From: Patescibacteria group bacterium
GTDB lineage: Bacteria; Patescibacteriota; Minisyncoccia; UBA6257; UBA9933
Length of the DNA: 56,182 nt
Assembly (NCBI GenBank): GCA_038078555.1
Contig: JBBTYQ010000008.1
Coordinates: forward strand, 1-56,182
Direction: 5' to 3'
This document shows, piece after piece, positions 43,226 to 50,968 of the stretch. Positions within the stretch are counted from its first letter, which is position 1; every line of letters starts with the position of its first letter. The translations under genes were made by a program, and so were the position numbers. Under the pieces are notes generated by a model that was not told where the DNA came from, did not search any database, and saw only the letters and a program-made list of their open reading frames with translations.

Positions 43226-44638
43226 TTAAATAGTCTGCACTATTAAAAGATTTGTAGTACCGGCTTTGCCGAAAGGAATACCCGCGCCAATAACGATTTT
43301 ATCCCCTTTTTTTGCTACATTATTTTTTACTGCTAATTCTTTTGCCACATCAATAACTTCGGAAACATCCTTAAAAGGCTTTATCATTCTTCCATAACAG
43401 CCAAAGCTTAATGCCAGTCGATTGTAAGTATATTTATTGGGAGTTAAAGCTAAAATCGGCTGTTTAGGCTTATAGCGGGAAATCATCCGGGCGGTTTTGC
43501 CGTATTCCGTCAAAGCTACGATCGCTTTAGCGTTAATATTATGAGCTGTGGTAACGATAGCATAACTTATGGAATCATTTACTGTTTTTGGCAATAAATG
43601 TTTGTGCTTTAAAATTTCCTCGTGCTTAAAATTTTCTTCGGTGTGGCGGCTGATTCTATCCATCACTTCCACCGCTTTAAGCGGATAACTTCCCAAAGTC
43701 GTTTCTTCGGAAAGCATCACTGCGTCAGTGCCGTCCAAAATCGCGTTAGCCACATCGTTAACTTCCGCTCTTGTCGGAACCGGATTTCTTACCATAGAAT
43801 CAAGCATTTGCGTGGCGGTAATTACCGGCTTGCCCAAATCATTGCACCTGCCGATTATTATTTTCTGTAAAATCGGCACGTGTTCTGCCGGTACTTCCAC
43901 CGCCAAATCGCCCCGCGCCACCATTATAGCGTCTGAAGCTTCTATAATCTTATCAAGATTTTCTATGGCTTCTTGAGTTTCAATTTTAGCAATAACTTTA
44001 ATATCAGCCTTTGCCTTGCTTAAAATTTTCTTAAGTTCTAAAACGTCAGCCGGCTTTCTCACAAAAGAAATTGCCATAAAATCAACCTTATTTTTAATGG
44101 CAAATTTAATATCTTCCTTATCTTTTTTAGTAAGTGAAGATATCTTCAAATAAGCGCCGGGTAAATTCATGCCTCGCCTGCCTTTTATCTCTCCGCCGAC
44201 AATAACGCGGGCAAAGATTTCACTGCCGGAAATTTTTTCCACCTTAAATTCATTTTTTCCGTCATTAAGCAAAATCTTGCTGCCTTTTTTTATTTCTTTG
44301 GGTAGATTTTTATAATTGACAGACACTCGCCTTTCGTCCCCAACGCATTTTTGAGTGGTAAAAATAAAACTTTGGCCATTTTTTAAAATAATGCTTTCGT
44401 GATAAAAATCGCCGATTCTTATTTTCGGACCGCAAAGGTCAGCTAAAACCGCTATTGGTTCCCCAATTTTTTTAGAAATATAGTGAGCTAAATTTATTCT
44501 GTTTTTATGCTCTTCGTGAGTGCCGTGCGAAAAATTTAATCTCACCACATTCATTCCCGCCAAAGCCATCTCAAGCATCATTTTTTTACTCTCCGTTGCC
44601 GGTCCGATAGTGGCAACAATTTTAGTTTTCTTCGTCAT
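43226..44638 (-). CDS. pyk: pyruvate kinase
   Basis: KTKIVATIGP, RLNFSHG, MVARGDL, TRAEV.DVANA. Confidence 0.97.
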   Translation of the reverse strand: MTKKTKIVATIGPATESKKMMLEMALAGMNVVRLNFSHGTHEEHKNRINLAHYISKKIGEPIAVLADLCGPKIRIGDFYHESIILKNGQSFIFTTQKCVGDERRVSVNYKNLPKEIKKGSKILLNDGKNEFKVEKISGSEIFARVIVGGEIKGRRGMNLPGAYLKISSLTKKDKEDIKFAIKNKVDFMAISFVRKPADVLELKKILSKAKADIKVIAKIETQEAIENLDKIIEASDAIMVARGDLAVEVPAEHVPILQKIIIGRCNDLGKPVITATQMLDSMVRNPVPTRAEVNDVANAILDGTDAVMLSEETTLGSYPLKAVEVMDRISRHTEENFKHEEILKHKHLLPKTVNDSISYAIVTTAHNINAKAIVALTEYGKTARMISRYKPKQPILALTPNKYTYNRLALSFGCYGRMIKPFKDVSEVIDVAKELAVKNNVAKKGDKIVIGAGIPFGKAGTTNLLIVQTI

Positions 44639-44658
44639 GATTATGATAAAATAAGTGT

Positions 44659-45174
44659 TTATTTTATCATGAATCTATACGGCTTGCGAGCCCATGCGCC
44701 TGCATATTCCACTCCTACTCTCTTAAGATTTGCGATTTTCGATTTACTAATTTTTATTCCCCTGTCCTCAATCCAAAGCCCGCATTTTCTATCGGCTTTT
44801 AGTCCGTTAAATTTTTTATTTATTTTTAAATGTTTCGTAAGCTTTGCCGGACCATTAATGTCGCCTGCTCCTCTTATTAAAATCGCCGCCGGATAATCTT
44901 TTGGCCCGACTACAATATTCAACATCCAATGCATGCCATAAGTAAAATAAACATACCACTTGCCTCCCTTTTCAAACATTATTTTATTTCTTTCAGTTTT
45001 TCCATGCGCCGCGTGCGAAGCTCTATCTTCAAAACCGTCATAAGCTTCCACTTCAGTAATCATCAGTGTAATTTCCTTTCCCTTATATTTTCGCACTAAA
45101 AATTTTCCCAAAAGAAACTCGGCGATTTTTAAAGCCGGCTGATTAAAAAATTTTTGAGGTAAAATCCTCCGCAT
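44659..45174 (-). CDS. 3-methyladenine DNA glycosylase (MPG family)
   Basis: ITEVEAY, YVYFTYGMH, GPAKL, RVG. Confidence 0.92.
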   Translation of the reverse strand: MRRILPQKFFNQPALKIAEFLLGKFLVRKYKGKEITLMITEVEAYDGFEDRASHAAHGKTERNKIMFEKGGKWYVYFTYGMHWMLNIVVGPKDYPAAILIRGAGDINGPAKLTKHLKINKKFNGLKADRKCGLWIEDRGIKISKSKIANLKRVGVEYAGAWARKPYRFMIK

Positions 45175-45246
45175 AAATCGCTAACTCAATAATTTACTGT
45201 TTTTATTCTCTAATTTAAGTAAAATTATTTTAAAGAACATCCCGCA

Positions 45247-45349
45247 GTCCCGACGGGCTTGGTCTGAGCAAAGCGAAGCCGTCGGGACGAGGGAGAAGAA
45301 AATTTTGCCGTCCCGACGTAAAGTCGGGATTCCGACCAAAGCGTCGGAA
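45247..45349. repeat. cluster of CCGAC..GTCGG palindromic elements
   Basis: GTCCCGACGG..CCGTCGGGAC and TCCCGAC-GTAAA-GTCGGGA / TTCCGAC-CAAAGC-GTCGGAA; related element in valS. Confidence 0.75.
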
Positions 45350-45430
45350 CTGGAGCAAAATTATTCTGATTCTGAAAAATGATTTTGCTTAAATCACTAA
45401 TCACTAATCCCTATCCAATATTCACTAATT

Positions 45431-46438
45431 TTATCCATGCCTTATCACCATCACATCGCCGTCTTGAGCAATATAATCCTTGCCCTCAATTTTTAGCCAG
45501 CCTTTTTGTTTGGCGCTGTTCCAAGAACCGGCTTCCAATAATTTCTGCCAATTTATCACTTCAGCGCGGATAAATTTTTTTTCAAAATCAGAATGAATCG
45601 CGCCCGCCGCCTCCGGAGCTTTTGAACCGTTTTTTATTGTCCAAGCCCGGGTTTCATCTTCGCCAGTAGTAAAAAAACTGATAAGTCCTAAAATTTCATA
45701 AGCTTTTTTAATTAATCCGCTTACGTCTTGAGATAATGACAAATCCATTATCAAATAATCAGCATTAAGCGATTTGATTTTGTTTTTTAATTCGCCACTC
45801 ACATCAGATTCTTTGCCATTTAAAAGATATATTTGACGCTTGGCGGTAAGCAAGGCTAATTCTTTAACAATCGGAGAATTTAAAATTTCCTCTTCCGAAT
45901 TAACTGCTAAAATGCCTTTTTCTAAATTTTCCTTGATTTTTTTCAAAATTTCCAAATCCTTGCTTTTTTGCTTATCACCGCTGCGGGCTTCAGCCTCCAA
46001 TTTCCCGAATCTTTTTTCCGTAATATCTAAATCTTTTAAAATTAATTCAGTGTTAATAATTTCCAAATCCCTTATTGGATCAACTTTTTGCTCAACATGA
46101 ATTATTTCTCCGCTTTCAAAAACCCTAATTACTTCCACTATTGAATCAACTTCGCGAATGTGGCTCAAAAATTGATTACCCAATCCCTCGCCTTTATTAG
46201 CTCCTTTAACCAATCCGGCAATATCGTAAAATTCCACAACCGCGGGAATGGTTTTTTTAGAATTGCTCAAATGCGTCAATTTATCCAAACGTTCATCAGG
46301 CACTATAACAACGCCGACATTAGGGTCGATTGTGGCAAATGGATAATTGGCGATATTTATTTCCTGATTGGTCAGCGCTTTAAATAAGGTTGATTTTCCG
46401 ACATTAGGCAACCCCACTATCCCGATAGAAAGTTTCAT
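45431..46438 (-). CDS. ychF: redox-regulated ATPase YchF
   Basis: GIVGLPNVGKST, NYPFATIDPN, GEGLGNQFL, YIAQDGD; true start MKLSIG. Confidence 0.95.
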   Translation of the reverse strand: MKLSIGIVGLPNVGKSTLFKALTNQEINIANYPFATIDPNVGVVIVPDERLDKLTHLSNSKKTIPAVVEFYDIAGLVKGANKGEGLGNQFLSHIREVDSIVEVIRVFESGEIIHVEQKVDPIRDLEIINTELILKDLDITEKRFGKLEAEARSGDKQKSKDLEILKKIKENLEKGILAVNSEEEILNSPIVKELALLTAKRQIYLLNGKESDVSGELKNKIKSLNADYLIMDLSLSQDVSGLIKKAYEILGLISFFTTGEDETRAWTIKNGSKAPEAAGAIHSDFEKKFIRAEVINWQKLLEAGSWNSAKQKGWLKIEGKDYIAQDGDVMVIRHG

Positions 46439-46467
46439 GGTTGATAATTTAGCATTATTTAATAAAT

Positions 46468-46496
46468 AAAAAAAGGGGCTGAATAAATCCAGCCCC
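46468..46496 (-). terminator. intrinsic terminator closing the Tas-like locus
   Basis: GGGGCTGGA-TTTA-TTCAGCCCC followed by T7. Confidence 0.85.
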
Positions 46497-46549
46497 GAGG
46501 GAACATCTACGCAATAGGTTTTTAAAACCATCGGACTTGTAGTTCCCTC
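46497..46549 (-). ncRNA. stem-loop dual-spacer guide unit 4 (TIGR-like)
   Basis: GAGGGAA-CTA-CAAGTCCGA-TG-GTTTTAAAAAC-CTA-TTGCGTAGA-TG-TTCCCTC. Confidence 0.85.
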
Positions 46550-46552
46550 AAA

Positions 46553-47512
46553 CTAAAATTTCCGCCACTTTCTAAAAATGTACTCCAAAAACTTTTGCCC
46601 CAAATACCGGCAAGCCTTGGCGTGAATATGCCCTTTAGAAATGTCAGGAAATTTCTGTCTCTCATATTCCTTTCTTTCTATCAGCATTTTGTTCCACGGC
46701 AGACAGTTTGACCGGCGATTAACCTGATCAGTAAAAAGAAAAATTCCTTGCTTCAAAAAATTATTCCAAGAAGCAACTTCGCCTTTCCTTCTTTTCTGAA
46801 TCTGGTTATTGCCGCTAAAACCGTAGCCCGCATAGTTCTTCAAATGAGCCTCGTTCGGGAATCGCCTGATATCCTGAATGCCGTAAATAATTCTTCCGGC
46901 AATCACAGCGCCCACACCCTTAATCGGCTTAAAAAGCGACTGATAAATCGGCAAATCTTTTACCGCTTTATCTATTGCTCTATAAAGGCGTTTCTCTTCT
47001 TTTAAAGCGGGCGCAAACATCGGGTGCTCGGCAATTTCCCGGCGCAATTCTTTTTCCAGTTCTGCCACCGGCTCGCCTCTCACTAAAAAATCGTCCTCAA
47101 GAGCTGCGAAAAGGCGCTGTTGAGCTTTCATTCTGATTTCCTTCTGCACAATATAATACTGCTGAAGCAACATTCCAACTTCCAAAATTTTGATATCTTT
47201 CCCCTGAATTGAATAAAAGAATTCCGGAGAATTTTGTGCTGTCTCTAAAAGAAGCTGGGCGTATTCGCCGCTCTTTCCTTTGCGAAGCTCCGCGAGTTTA
47301 GCAGTCGGAATCCGAAAAATCTTTGCGCCTTTTTTTGCGCAAGCTAAAGCAAATTTATCTGCTCCTGAACCGAATGGCAGATAAAATTCGTCTTTTTCGG
47401 ATATTTTTGAAACAAAGTCCAGTTTTTTTTCAGAACTATCTAATAATATTTCTTGACCTTCCTCTAATGCAACAACCGCTTTCTTTAATCCATACTCAAC
47501 GCCGTGTCTCAT
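46553..47512 (-). CDS. IS110-related Nop-domain RNA-binding protein (Tas-like) with degenerate RuvC-like N-terminus
   Basis: IKGVGAVIAGRII, DIRRFP, YAGY, KRRKGE.ASWN..LK, KGHIHAKACRY..KFL..IFRKW; AAGGAGG ribosome-binding site; flanked by dual-spacer units. Confidence 0.82.
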   Translation of the reverse strand: MRHGVEYGLKKAVVALEEGQEILLDSSEKKLDFVSKISEKDEFYLPFGSGADKFALACAKKGAKIFRIPTAKLAELRKGKSGEYAQLLLETAQNSPEFFYSIQGKDIKILEVGMLLQQYYIVQKEIRMKAQQRLFAALEDDFLVRGEPVAELEKELRREIAEHPMFAPALKEEKRLYRAIDKAVKDLPIYQSLFKPIKGVGAVIAGRIIYGIQDIRRFPNEAHLKNYAGYGFSGNNQIQKRRKGEVASWNNFLKQGIFLFTDQVNRRSNCLPWNKMLIERKEYERQKFPDISKGHIHAKACRYLGQKFLEYIFRKWRKF

Positions 47513-47565
47513 CTGAAGCCTCCTTTTTGAGAGTTAGTCCGCAAAATGCGACAAAATTCATAAAA

Positions 47566-47629
47566 GCTTGGAAAAAAACATTGTAATGTCAGTTCGTCTG
47601 AACACAACAAGGATAGTTTTTCTCCAAGC
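47566..47629 (-). ncRNA. stem-loop dual-spacer guide unit 3 (TIGR-like)
   Basis: GCTTGGAGAAAAA-CTA-TCCTTGTTG-TG-TTCAGACGAA-CTG-ACATTACAA-TG-TTTTTTTCCAAGC. Confidence 0.85.
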
Positions 47630-47642
47630 AATTTAGCGGAAA

Positions 47643-47707
47643 AAAGCGCTTAGAACACTGTAGTTCTAGGATTTCAAATCCACCAGCAAAGTAGTTCCAA
47701 GCGCTTT
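47643..47707 (-). ncRNA. stem-loop dual-spacer guide unit 2 (TIGR-like)
   Basis: AAAGCGCTTGGAA-CTA-CTTTGCTGG-TG-GATTTGAAATC-CTA-GAACTACAG-TG-TTCTAAGCGCTTT. Confidence 0.87.
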
Positions 47708-47716
47708 AAATTTTGA

Positions 47717-47773
47717 GGCGCGCAACATTTCTATGAAAGTTGAAAAACAACATATTCAATGTAGTCGCGCGCC
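47717..47773 (-). ncRNA. stem-loop dual-spacer guide unit 1 (TIGR-like)
   Basis: GGCGCGCGA-CTA-CATTGAATA-TG-TTGTTTTTCAA-CTT-TCATAGAAA-TG-TTGCGCGCC. Confidence 0.85.
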
Positions 47774-47782
47774 ATACTCTAT

Positions 47783-47795
47783 ATTTCAAAGAACA
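47783..47795 (-). promoter_or_regulatory. boxA-like antitermination site in the array leader
   Basis: TGTTCTTTGAAAT, about 10 nt before unit 1. Confidence 0.55.
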
Positions 47796-47879
47796 CATCA
47801 GCAAATAATAACGACATTTTAATAATAGTCTTTAATTAAAAAAAACAAATTTTATATAGTCATTACTATTTATTACTCA

Positions 47880-47908
47880 ATAATAGCATTAATTTTATAG
47901 ATTGTCAA
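47880..47908 (-). promoter_or_regulatory. sigma70 promoter driving the array and Tas-like gene
   Basis: TTGACA-17 nt-TATTAT with extended TGn. Confidence 0.8.
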
Positions 47909-48006
47909 GTTTATGTAATTTAACGGATTTTAAAAAAATAAAAGCCCAAAAGCTAATGTGCTTTCAGGCTCTGTGTCTTGTGTCTTGGCGTTTATTTTTC
48001 TAAGAA

Positions 48007-48552
48007 TCAAATTTCAATTTCACGATTGCTCTTTATTGTAAAATAAATCTCCTCTAGTCCATACTTTATCTCAACTGCATATTCATACTTTTCTTTCAAA
48101 TCATCATAAAAATTTTTAGAAAGGTCTTCTTTTCTAAACTCGGGCGATGCTATTTCTTCCATTTTAGTTAATATTAAAATCTTGTCTTTTTCAATAAGTT
48201 CCTTAAGTTCGCCGAATGAACTTTTCAGCTCACGAAATTCACTGGCGCGCGGAGTCTTTTCAATTTCGTTTTCGATAATTTCTATGCTTTTTATTATGTT
48301 CTCATAACGGTCAGCTACGGCCTGGCAAGCATACTGAAAAAGCGCGATTTTAATTTCGTATTCCTCGCTAATTATCTTATTTTCTATCGCATCTTCTATT
48401 GCGCTAAGTTTTTTTCCACTTTTGCTGATCTGCTCATCAATCACTGTAATTTTGGTTGTAATTTCTTCGAGCTCAAAGAATGTATAGCTGAAAAGTACCG
48501 TTAAAAGCACTGTCAAAAAAAGAACTTTTCTTATTGTTACCGCGCTTTCCAT
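48007..48552 (-). CDS. membrane-anchored coiled-coil hypothetical protein
   Basis: N-terminal transmembrane helix, AAAGGAGG ribosome-binding site. Confidence 0.65.
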   Translation of the reverse strand: MESAVTIRKVLFLTVLLTVLFSYTFFELEEITTKITVIDEQISKSGKKLSAIEDAIENKIISEEYEIKIALFQYACQAVADRYENIIKSIEIIENEIEKTPRASEFRELKSSFGELKELIEKDKILILTKMEEIASPEFRKEDLSKNFYDDLKEKYEYAVEIKYGLEEIYFTIKSNREIEI

Positions 48553-48628
48553 AGACGCCTCCTTTATAAAACACCTTATTTAATTGATAATGAACAGCTC
48601 CTTTTAAAATTAAGCAATAAATAGAGAA

Positions 48629-48946
48629 TTAAAGCAATGCTTTTGATTCTTTAAGTATTTCTTCCGGTAACGGATCGCCCGGCTTTGTTTTTCCCGGATA
48701 CCGCCAAGCGGAAATAACTTTTCGCTTAGTTTTTGTCTCTTGGATCATCGTCCAAATTTCATAAGGCCTTTTTAAACTGCCCGCGCTTTGCATCAGAGCA
48801 ATAGTATTTGGAGCAACGCCTTCTTCAATGCGCGCCGGCGCATGAAGCACTCGGCGCACTCTTTGTTCTGATAAATGATAGAAATTCATTTTCTGGAGCG
48901 CATGCTTTGTCCAAAATAAAACCTTTAACTTTTTCCCCAGTGTCAT
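48629..48946 (-). CDS. conserved hypothetical protein (DUF4258/BrnT-like fold possible)
   Basis: WTKHA..KM, EIW.M, VISAWRYPG. Confidence 0.65.
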   Translation of the reverse strand: MTLGKKLKVLFWTKHALQKMNFYHLSEQRVRRVLHAPARIEEGVAPNTIALMQSAGSLKRPYEIWTMIQETKTKRKVISAWRYPGKTKPGDPLPEEILKESKALL

Positions 48947-49012
48947 TTCACTATTTTATGATATAATTTGAATAATAAAAATGGTCAAAAATAAAAAATT
49001 ATTGTTTTATAT

Positions 49013-50968
49013 ATGGTTAATATAAAAAGATTTGCTCTTAATTTTTCGCCTGTTCTCCAATGGTCGCTTGTTTTATTCATGGTCTTTATTTCGTTTATTA
49101 TGATGCTCAACAGCTCGCTTCAGGAGTCAGCCACTATGGATGAATTAGCCCATATTCCTTCAGGCTACGGATATGTAAAATATCTAGATTATCGGCTTAA
49201 TCCCGAACACCCTCCCTTGGTGAAAGCATTAGCCGCTTTTCCCTTATTATTTCAAGACCTTAACTTTCCTACTGACAGATCGCCCTGGCAATCGGAAATT
49301 AACGGCCAATGGGCGGCTGGCGCGCAATTTTTATACGAATCAGGCAACGACGCTGATACAATTGTCCAATGGTCGCGAATCGGCCCGATGATTCTTACTT
49401 TAATTTTGATTATTTTTATTTATATCTGGTCAAAGGAATTAATTGGCCGCTGGTGGGCATTGTTGCCTGTTTTTCTTTTCTCTCTTTCTCCGACGGTTTT
49501 GGCTCACGGCCATTATGTAACAACTGATCTTGGCGCGGCTTTTGGCATATTTATCGCCACTTATTATTTTGTAAAATTCCTATTTGAACAATCTCGCAAA
49601 AATTTGATTTTTGCCGGTTTAGCTTTTGGTTTGGCTCAATTGTTGAAATTTTCCGCGGTTCTGCTTATCCCATTTTTTATATTTCTAATTGCCGCTTTTT
49701 ACGTTTGGAAAACTAAAAGCGAATGGCATCAAACTGCGCCACTCGCAAAACTAAAAAGATTTTCCGCCAGATTTTTAAGATATCTAAAATCGCTTATTCT
49801 TGTTTTTATCATCGGCTACGGTTTGGTTTACGCAGTTTATTTTGTTTTTACCATCAACTATCCGATTGAAAAACAAGCATCTGATACCGAATTTATTTTA
49901 TCTTCATTTGCCGGCAATCCGGACTCTTCTTTAGAAACATGCAAATTAAACTCTAAAATTGCGCCAGCCAGAAGAATAAGATGCCTCGCCGAAGTCAATA
50001 TTTTAATGAGCCAAAATAAAATTCTAAGACCGATGGCTGAATATATGCTCGGCGTTTTAATGGTCATGCAGCGTTCTAGCGGAGGAAATACCGGCTATTT
50101 TATGGGCGAAGTTTCAGCCAGCGGCTGGTGGTATTATTTCCCGGTTATTTTCGCCTTAAAAGAACCCATTCCTTCGCTGGCTTTAATGTCTCTTGCGTTT
50201 ATTATAGCGTTTTTGAATATTGTAAAAAATTTTAGATTTCCAACCTCGATAGTTAAGAAATTCTTTGACTATCTCGGCACTAATTTTGCCGAATTTTCCA
50301 TGATTTCTTTTGTTATATTTTATTGGGCTTATAGCATCAAAAGTCCGTTAAATATCGGAATTCGCCATATTCTGCCTACTTTGCCGTTTATCTATATTTT
50401 AACCGCCGGAGTAATGAAAAAATGGATAAGTTCCGGATCGAATGTAATCAAAAGAGAATTATGGGGAAAGCTAACAAGCTTGACTTCTGCTTTGATAAAA
50501 ATTTCGCTAAAATCTGCCGTAATAATTATTTTGATAATTTGGTATCTTGGAGAAACATTGATTAATTCGCCGTATTTTCTTTCTTACTTCAATCAATTCG
50601 GCGGAGGCACCAATAACGGATATCAATATGCAGTGGACTCCAATTACGACTGGGGCCAAGACTTAAAACGCTTAAAAAAATTCACGGATGAAAATAATGT
50701 CTCTAAAATCGCTATTGATTATTTTGGCGGCGGCAATCCCCAATATTATTTAGGGAATAAAGCCGAAGGCTGGTGGTCATCGAGAGGCAATCCAAAATAC
50801 GAATCAATCAAATGGATCGCTGTATCAATAAATTCCATCCAAGGGGCTATGGGTAATTTACATCCCGGCCATATCCGCAAACCCGAAGATGAATATAAAT
50901 GGATCAAAAATCCTTATCAGCCTTACGCCAAAGCCGGCACTTCAATATTTATTTATAAATTGGAGTAA
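49013..50968 (+). CDS. GT-C (family 39-like) glycosyltransferase
   Basis: TMDE..HI, NPEHPPL.K, DSNYDWGQDL, many transmembrane helices. Confidence 0.85.
   Translation: MVNIKRFALNFSPVLQWSLVLFMVFISFIMMLNSSLQESATMDELAHIPSGYGYVKYLDYRLNPEHPPLVKALAAFPLLFQDLNFPTDRSPWQSEINGQWAAGAQFLYESGNDADTIVQWSRIGPMILTLILIIFIYIWSKELIGRWWALLPVFLFSLSPTVLAHGHYVTTDLGAAFGIFIATYYFVKFLFEQSRKNLIFAGLAFGLAQLLKFSAVLLIPFFIFLIAAFYVWKTKSEWHQTAPLAKLKRFSARFLRYLKSLILVFIIGYGLVYAVYFVFTINYPIEKQASDTEFILSSFAGNPDSSLETCKLNSKIAPARRIRCLAEVNILMSQNKILRPMAEYMLGVLMVMQRSSGGNTGYFMGEVSASGWWYYFPVIFALKEPIPSLALMSLAFIIAFLNIVKNFRFPTSIVKKFFDYLGTNFAEFSMISFVIFYWAYSIKSPLNIGIRHILPTLPFIYILTAGVMKKWISSGSNVIKRELWGKLTSLTSALIKISLKSAVIIILIIWYLGETLINSPYFLSYFNQFGGGTNNGYQYAVDSNYDWGQDLKRLKKFTDENNVSKIAIDYFGGGNPQYYLGNKAEGWWSSRGNPKYESIKWIAVSINSIQGAMGNLHPGHIRKPEDEYKWIKNPYQPYAKAGTSIFIYKLE

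Follow-up and report, generated by a model that had tools for sequence, protein, structure and literature searches.

TIGR-Tas systems, their stem-loop arrays and the subsets with a "predicted catalytically inactive RuvC" have been defined by Faure et al. (Science 2025, PMC12045711). TaTasR (9MTY), as described, carries four conserved acidic residues and cuts both DNA strands; it is guided by 36-nt tigRNAs of the dual-repeat type, which have CCA/UG boxes and are matured with the aid of Tas. Structures of PateTasR (329 aa) and CsTasR have been solved by Xu et al. (bioRxiv 10.64898/2026.09.09.750476), who report that the RuvC is inactive in both and that neither cleaves DNA. Guide-dependent repression of a reporter is reported in the same work for CsTasR and MbTasA, and cysG was repressed when a tigRNA was redirected to the chromosomal cysG gene. 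The authors conclude that the RuvC scaffold is kept in stem-loop TasRs for DNA binding, and they describe the Y/H processing loop of dual-repeat Tas proteins as absent in all stem-loop clades. Non-cutting RNA-guided binding is therefore not new as an idea, since it has already been demonstrated for relatives of the protein described here.

The locus under study lies in a 56,182-nt stretch of DNA (the window) from a small groundwater bacterium, a member of the Patescibacteria, whose genome of 558,453 bp is 87% complete. Judged from its sequence and from the predicted structure of its product, it is a well-formed TIGR-TasR cassette of the stem-loop class whose RuvC site has been dismantled, and the product is most likely an RNA-guided DNA binder. 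A probability of roughly 0.7 is given to the reading, drawn from sequence, models and analogy, that the cassette is self-contained and that its dead-RuvC TasR would bind guide-matched DNA without cutting it. Loss of cleavage, RNA loading, DNA binding and any repression by this TasR are what we infer by analogy with the relatives. As the idea of a natural "dCas9-like" Tas was published in September 2026, the locus is mainly another example, and it may already be among the 20,096 tas loci of the two Zhang-lab papers. Its novelty is small and consists in the position of the TasR inside a rare tetrad-keeping clade and in the absence of a self-target from its own 87%-complete genome. Most TIGR loci are on short metagenomic contigs, and the locus gains in value by belonging to a genome that is nearly complete.

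The window TasR resembles PateTasR and CsTasR in the order of RuvC fold, coiled coil and Nop-like C-terminal domain, in a short C-terminal tail that lacks a Y/H loop, in the substituted catalytic positions and in coming from a CPR host. It is also close to PateTasR in size (319 aa vs 329 aa), and the symmetric CUU/UG boxes reported for PateTasR match the CU[A/U/G] and UG boxes of the window. The substitutions themselves differ. In CsTasR the first two positions are reported to be R8 and V126 and the RuvC domain to contain an insertion of 80 residues, and the site of PateTasR is reported to be blocked by R91, whereas the window TasR has E6, P46, K80 and Y84. It belongs, moreover, to another lineage than these two proteins, one in which the nearest relatives still have the full tetrad. 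TaTasR is the best structural match (Z 22.4), its C-terminal half is homologous and it is likewise part of a dimeric tandem-spacer system, but the acidic residues described for TaTasR are lost in the window TasR, and the guides of the window are stem-loop units of 57-71 nt instead of dual-repeat tigRNAs. Stem-loop guides and a non-cutting mode of DNA binding, which for the window TasR would follow from the relatives, are shared with the TasA proteins as described (PlTasA, MbTasA, BlTasA). These have no RuvC domain, whereas the window TasR has a well-folded RuvC scaffold that touches the partner coiled coil in the predicted dimer.

The tas gene lies at 46553..47512 (−) and encodes a 319-aa TasR of the stem-loop class, as seen from sequence searches and the predicted structure. 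It is present in one copy in the genome. A Shine-Dalgarno sequence, AGGAGG, is read at 47519..47524 (−), 6 nt 5′ of the ATG. The range 47180-47512 considered in the earlier note corresponds to residues 1-111 of the 319-codon ORF 46553-47512 (−), the translation of which contains MRHGVEYGLKK..., YLPFGSGADKF..., ...EFYLPFGSGADKF... and ...RKGKSGEYAQLLLE.... A RuvC-fold domain (residues 1-102; 47207..47512 (−)) was delimited by alignment, model and structure comparison. It is followed by coiled-coil helices (residues 104-185; 46958..47203 (−)), which were taken from the secondary structure of the model and form the predicted dimer interface, the interface residues coming from the dimer prediction. 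The Nop-like RNA-binding C-terminal domain (residues 186-319; 46556..46957 (−)) was assigned from family and PDB sequence matches and from the model. Residues 114-317 match the NCBIfam family TIGR_Tas_endo (NF052498) with 112.4 bits against a cutoff of 100, and a phmmer search against the PDB returned TaTasR (9mty_A) as the sole match, with an E value of 4.9e-20, over the C-terminal half. These matches bear out the claim of the earlier note that the RNA-binding C-terminus is retained. The ORF product is a TIGR-associated TasR with a RuvC fold, a coiled coil and a Nop-like RNA-binding domain.

The AlphaFold model of the TasR, built on 72 relatives, has a pLDDT of 95.7 and a pTM of 0.92. Its RuvC domain runs in the order beta1-3, alpha1, beta4, alpha2, beta5, alpha3, alpha4. 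When the model was used in a Foldseek search, 9MTY ranked first (E 2.5e-14) and the IS621 recombinase next. With VIA-align, residues 1-319 of the model were aligned to residues 6-296 of 9mty_B (Z 22.4, rmsd 4.2, 278 aligned), and IS621 was matched with a Z of 17.5. The structural alignment to TasR and IS110 that had been proposed earlier as a check thus gives a full-length match to TaTasR, and the fold is kept. Residues 1-102 alone matched RuvC resolvases with a Z of about 9, the T. thermophilus RuvC 6s16_A reaching 9.5 (rmsd 3.0, 102 aligned); together with the confidence of the model, this agrees with the RuvC-like layout that had been noticed by eye in the N-terminal ~100 aa. PF01548 (DEDD_Tnp_IS110) matched 10 of the 72 aligned relatives but not the window TasR. 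Archaeal Nop5/Nop56 matched residues 103-319 with Z values of 7-8, and TasH structures matched residues 105-319 with Z values of 17-19. The last helix of the model comprises residues 293-318 of 319. Because it ends at residue 318, the Y/H processing loop is absent from this TasR.

A homodimer was predicted with an ipSAE of 0.70, as against 0.00 for the best control, with a run-to-run contact agreement of at least 93% and a partner pLDDT of 85. In calibration, 20 of 30 solved homodimers and 1 of 23 monomers attained this ipSAE mark. The predicted interface is made by the coiled coil (residues 114-172) together with RuvC helices 27-35 and 53-61, which lie against the tip of the partner's coiled coil. 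Since the prediction may perhaps have passed through memory of 9MTY, the score is to be read as likeness to 9MTY and not as proof of binding.

The former catalytic positions were read from the codons as E6 (47495-47497), P46 (47375-47377) and K80, S81, G82, E83 and Y84 (47261-47275), all on the (−) strand. In an alignment of eight proteins, the motifs of the window TasR are GVEYG, YLPFG and K-S-G-E-Y-A, where P0002-P0007 have GVDYG, YLEFG and D(E)-K-x-x-D-A. The tetrad columns 6/46/80/84 accordingly read E, P, K and Y in the window TasR and D, E, D (E in P0004) and D in these six closest homologs (51-62% identity). P0008 is likewise substituted, with T at 6, P at 46, N at 81 and R at 84. The tetrad sites had been reported before as GVEYG, YLPFG and KSGEYA, and both the codons and the homolog alignment confirm this. 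All four canonical acidic positions are changed, and three of them are now non-acidic (P46, K80, Y84). There are 99 columns invariant in P0002-P0007, and the window TasR departs from them at 12. The N-domain accounts for six of these, four within the catalytic motifs (D6E, E46P, K81S and D84Y) and two conservative ones outside them (L37I and V65I). As L37I and V65I are the only remaining departures, every non-conservative loss in the N-domain falls in a catalytic motif.

In the model, E6 ends beta1, P46 ends beta4 and K80-Y84 lead into helix 84-94. The ends of beta1 and beta4 and the start of this helix are the usual sites of the RuvC carboxylates. In the profile alignment to PDB sequences, the Y84 column falls on the last D of TaTasR NDEND and of IS621 KTDTVD. 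Residue 1 of the model pairs with residue 6 of 9MTY, which would place E6 at or next to D11 on the assumption that beta1 is ungapped; the residue-level placement of E6 and P46 derives from the homolog alignment, from where the two residues stand in the secondary structure and from where the aligned ranges begin, and not from coordinates. D11 is the residue mutated in dTasR, and D11A is reported to inactivate TaTasR (Faure et al., Science 2025, PMC12045711). With a carboxylate still present at E6 and with E83 adjoining Y84, a non-canonical metal site using E6/E83 is formally conceivable.

Guide units were searched with a scanner that required a fixed succession of elements. An outer stem (at least 6 bp, with C as its last base) had to be followed by U, N, 9 nt of spacer, U and G; next came an inner hairpin bounded by G and C, a second block of U, N, 9 nt of spacer, U and G, and the strand that closes the outer stem. 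On both strands of the whole 558,453-bp genome it found five units, all of them beside tas and on the tas strand, while five shuffled genomes gave 0, 0, 0, 1 and 1 matches; the scanner was designed after three units had already been seen, so this specificity is partly post hoc. The units are 57-71 nt long, four of them upstream of tas and one right after its stop codon. The guide units look intact, as the earlier note had said, but its count of four was one short. Within each unit a hairpin separates two blocks, both made of box C (CUN), a 9-nt spacer and box D (UG) in this order. The boxes on both sides of the inner hairpin are CU[A/U/G] and UG, and the outer stems of 10-14 bp differ in sequence and are always paired.

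A repeat scan showed three hairpins upstream of tas, U1-U3, with z-scores of -4.3 to -5.2 against shuffles. U1 (47717..47773 (−)) has an outer stem of 10 bp, the spacers CATTGAATA and TCATAGAAA and an inner hairpin of 13 nt, and folds at -24.5 kcal/mol (z-score -4.34). The outer stem is 14 bp in both U2 (47643..47707 (−); spacers CTTTGCTGG and GAACTACAG; fold z-score -4.99) and U3 (47566..47629 (−); spacers TCCTTGTTG and ACATTACAA; fold z-score -5.22). U4 (46494..46552 (−)) carries the spacers CAAGTCCGA and TTGCGTAGA; its fold z-score is -2.63, and 2 of 200 shuffles fold equally well or better. The first unit, U0 (47802..47872 (−)), has an outer stem of 14 bp including G-U, the spacers TATAAAATT (A) and TTATTAAAA (B) and an inner hairpin of 19 nt. 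The stretch of 53 nt that separates U3 from the start codon has a fold no more stable than that of its shuffles (z-score 0.15) and is therefore not regarded as a unit.

A sigma-70-like promoter sequence is found at 47880..47908 (−), 8 nt upstream of U0, with TTGACA, a 17-nt spacer, TATTAT and a TG before the second hexamer (11/12 hexamer matches); five promoter-like sites are present in the region, for which shuffles predict 4.9, and the sequence thus agrees with the consensus but does not prove a start site. The cassette is closed by an intrinsic-terminator-like hairpin at 46475..46496 (−), which has 6 G-C pairs among its 9 and leads into TTTTTTTATT. Upstream of the promoter, at 47941-47972 (−), the preceding gene has a terminator-like hairpin of its own. 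The order on the minus strand is hence the terminator-like hairpin of the preceding gene, promoter, U0-U3, tas, U4 and terminator, and from the sequence the cassette looks like one transcription unit of about 1.4 kb. A further point of value is this very compact, apparently single-promoter organisation, with a guide unit between the stop codon and the terminator.

U0 stands directly 3′ of the promoter; both of its spacers consist of A and T only, and its inner hairpin is the longest among the units. The 18-bp site predicted for it looks like generic AT-rich intergenic DNA. With a relaxed scanner an extra match was obtained at 48470-48526 (−), inside the ORF 48007-48552, with a 5-bp outer stem, a 3-bp inner stem and spacers of 10 and 9 nt. 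It was rejected as a sixth unit, being a minimum-threshold match inside an ORF and probably due to chance. Rfam gave nothing relevant in 44500-49200, and no tRNA was found in 44000-49500.

The following mechanism is proposed. The cassette is arranged as putative promoter, four tigRNA units, tas, fifth tigRNA unit and putative terminator. By analogy with the characterised relatives, a Tas dimer would hold one processed unit, and the two 9-nt spacers would pair with opposite strands of an 18-bp site consisting of spacer A and then the reverse complement of spacer B. The active site has been dismantled by D to E at 6, E to P at 46, D to K at 80 and D to Y at 84, with the fold, the predicted dimer interface and the RNA-binding half kept. 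Such a complex would stay bound to the uncut site and could block transcription or another DNA transaction. The form of the site is our own derivation: 8-nt 3′ overhangs are reported for TasR cleavage (Faure et al., PMC12045711), from which each DNA strand would pair via its 3′ half, giving spacer A plus the reverse complement of spacer B.

As the locus lies in a nearly complete genome, a direct negative self-target test was possible. The genome and viral contigs were searched with the 18-mers A+rc(B), and rc(A)+B served as the control geometry. No guide had a match at up to 1 mismatch in either geometry in the host's own genome (558,453 bp, 87% complete), and U1-U4 had none there at up to 2 mismatches. 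At 3 mismatches U1-U4 gave 3, 0, 1 and 0 self-matches in the expected geometry and 0, 0, 1 and 1 in the control. The all-AT U0 gave 2 self-matches at 2 mismatches, against 4 in the control. Self-match counts at 2-4 mismatches were no higher than with the control geometry.

In viral contigs, exact 18-mers of U1-U4 were present in 4, 1, 15 and 0 contigs in the expected geometry and in 1, 1, 2 and 0 in the control. The 15 contigs with U3 matches (L010-L024) represent four flank families, and the retrieved viral loci contained no second guide's site at up to 2 mismatches. The viral contigs were rejected as guide targets, the matches being judged chance or compositional. In three of the flank families the U3 site is directly upstream of an opposite-strand start codon, over an AAGGA Shine-Dalgarno-like stretch. 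This placement is probably compositional; the site holds a TTGTTGTTG run. That natural targets are not nameable is reported as the general situation (Xu et al., bioRxiv 10.64898/2026.09.09.750476).

The cassette is flanked on one side by genes for a methylpurine glycosylase and a YchF GTPase, and on the other by two small ORFs and a PMT-type glycosyltransferase gene. The gap of ~250 bp between the glycosylase and YchF genes (45181-45430), in which no tRNA or Rfam match was found, contains a 7-nt tandem repeat of 5.4 copies at 45392-45429. Four groundwater runs, which belong to two studies, gave contigs that do not differ from the window over the stretch they cover, so there are no variants to count at the tas locus. 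The nearest homolog available as DNA is that of a metagenomic locus, L002; the NG86 comparison with it gave a pS of 0.86, which is saturated and yields no dN/dS. The ratio of N-domain to C-domain divergence is 1.37 for the window TasR and 1.22-1.54 for the other seven proteins of the alignment. Of the N-domain columns invariant in the intact relatives, 77% are kept by the window TasR and 81-96% by these relatives themselves in a leave-one-out comparison, and this deficit is accounted for by the changes in the catalytic motifs.

The earlier note had proposed that catalysis is lost and guide-directed binding kept. This stands as the best reading of the sequence and the structure prediction, because the four positions are substituted and the C-terminal half, the coiled coil, the predicted dimer and the guide units look intact; we infer both parts of it. 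An alternative that we regard as improbable is that the protein is still a nuclease, in which a non-canonical acidic set of E6, E83 and perhaps D41 or D52 binds metal and cuts. E6 is a conservative replacement of D, E83 stands beside Y84, and D41 is nearly invariant across the 72 aligned relatives. However, P46 takes the place of the beta4 glutamate, and K80 and Y84 that of both helix aspartates. D41 is also kept in relatives with R at the first catalytic position, the state of the non-cleaving CsTasR, and is therefore more likely to be structural. PateTasR and CsTasR, too, are substituted at canonical positions and are reported not to cleave. Still far less probable is that the protein is an RNA-guided recombinase or transposase of the IS110 type. 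It has the RuvC and Tnp/Nop-like architecture of IS110/IS621, with IS621 as a structural neighbour (Z 17.5); the sole Pfam match is to Transposase_20 (24.8 bits), and its relative P0003 is named "MAG: transposase". Yet the match to NCBIfam transpos_IS110 (NF033542) is far below the cutoff (31.7 bits vs 140). The DEDD tetrad is absent, there is no bridge RNA, the gene is single-copy and its flanks are tigRNA-type units and housekeeping genes.

Decay of the locus was also weighed: catalysis would have been lost first, the rest of the gene would now be drifting and the locus would have no current function. We consider this unlikely, if slightly less so than a surviving nuclease. The searches of the genome and the viral contigs gave no target, no estimate of selection could be obtained from identical contigs and a saturated pS, and the share of invariant N-domain columns kept is below the range of the intact relatives. 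With the window query, tas was not found in any of the 36 same-family genomes searched (36/36), and distant matches (29-31% identity) were seen in 2 of 24 same-order genomes, a patchy distribution. Against drift, however, the frame is open and gives a very confident model, the non-conservative losses in the N-domain are confined to the catalytic motifs, and the N/C divergence ratio is within the range of the other seven proteins. The five units have perfect box and stem geometry, the promoter, Shine-Dalgarno sequence and terminator are intact, and no difference in the locus is seen among the contigs of four runs from two studies. A non-cutting, guide-directed binder thus remains the preferred reading.

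A search of a 5.8-billion-cluster protein set gave eight proteins including the window TasR (P0001). In a maximum-likelihood tree of the 19 closest proteins these eight form a clade (support 100/99), in which the window TasR groups with the intact P0003 (92/84) and P0002 (92/95); a clade of the window TasR and the dead P0008 was not rejected in the AU test (p 0.385). The complete D-E-D/E-D tetrad is kept in six of the eight and lost in two, through either one loss or two. An all-against-all HMMER search gave 893 representatives at E up to 0.001, and the tetrad was surveyed in 156 aligned proteins, namely the 8 closest and 148 more from the best 150 of the 893. Three catalytic columns could be aligned across these 156. 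Only 9 proteins read D, E, D there; in 32 the first two columns are D and E, in 43 the first column is R, and 13 carry a gap in one of the three. CsTasR, too, is reported to have R in the first catalytic column (Xu et al., bioRxiv 10.64898/2026.09.09.750476). Since only 9/156 read D, E, D, substituted tetrads are the rule in the family and the intact clade around the window TasR is unusual.

In P0009-P0019 (35-44% identity), D and E are kept at the first two positions in 9 of 11 proteins and the helix-aspartate sites are variable (E-x-H, T-A or V-A, for instance). This pattern is intermediate between the intact clade and the large R-first group. One of these proteins, P0013, is 36% identical to the window TasR and agrees with PateTasR, under the same numbering, in 13 of the 18 residues quoted for the latter, which suggests a link between P0013 and PateTasR.

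In the main text of Xu et al. no description of tetrad-intact stem-loop TasRs was found. Because the closest relatives retain the tetrad, the clade could help to find out if stem-loop TasRs are able to cut and in what way they lose catalysis. It is possible, though we hold the odds to be somewhat short of even, that the intact members cut DNA, in which case stem-loop TIGR systems would not be uniformly nuclease-dead and the clade would capture a switch from nuclease to binder at 51-62% identity. If they do cut, they would provide a natural matched pair for the role of a dead TasR in a 0.56-Mb genome without a self-target.

Relatives were also sought in genome contigs, where the scan found none, and in metagenomes, where it found the single locus L002 (contig 1-2235) encoding the tetrad-intact P0003 (ORF 365-1411). 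With a slightly relaxed scanner, L002 shows units at 82-136, 218-280 and 296-353 upstream of the gene and at 1414-1463 just after the stop codon. This layout is an independent replicate of the guide architecture of the window. L002 also carries an ORF of 129 aa at 1629-2018, after the downstream unit.
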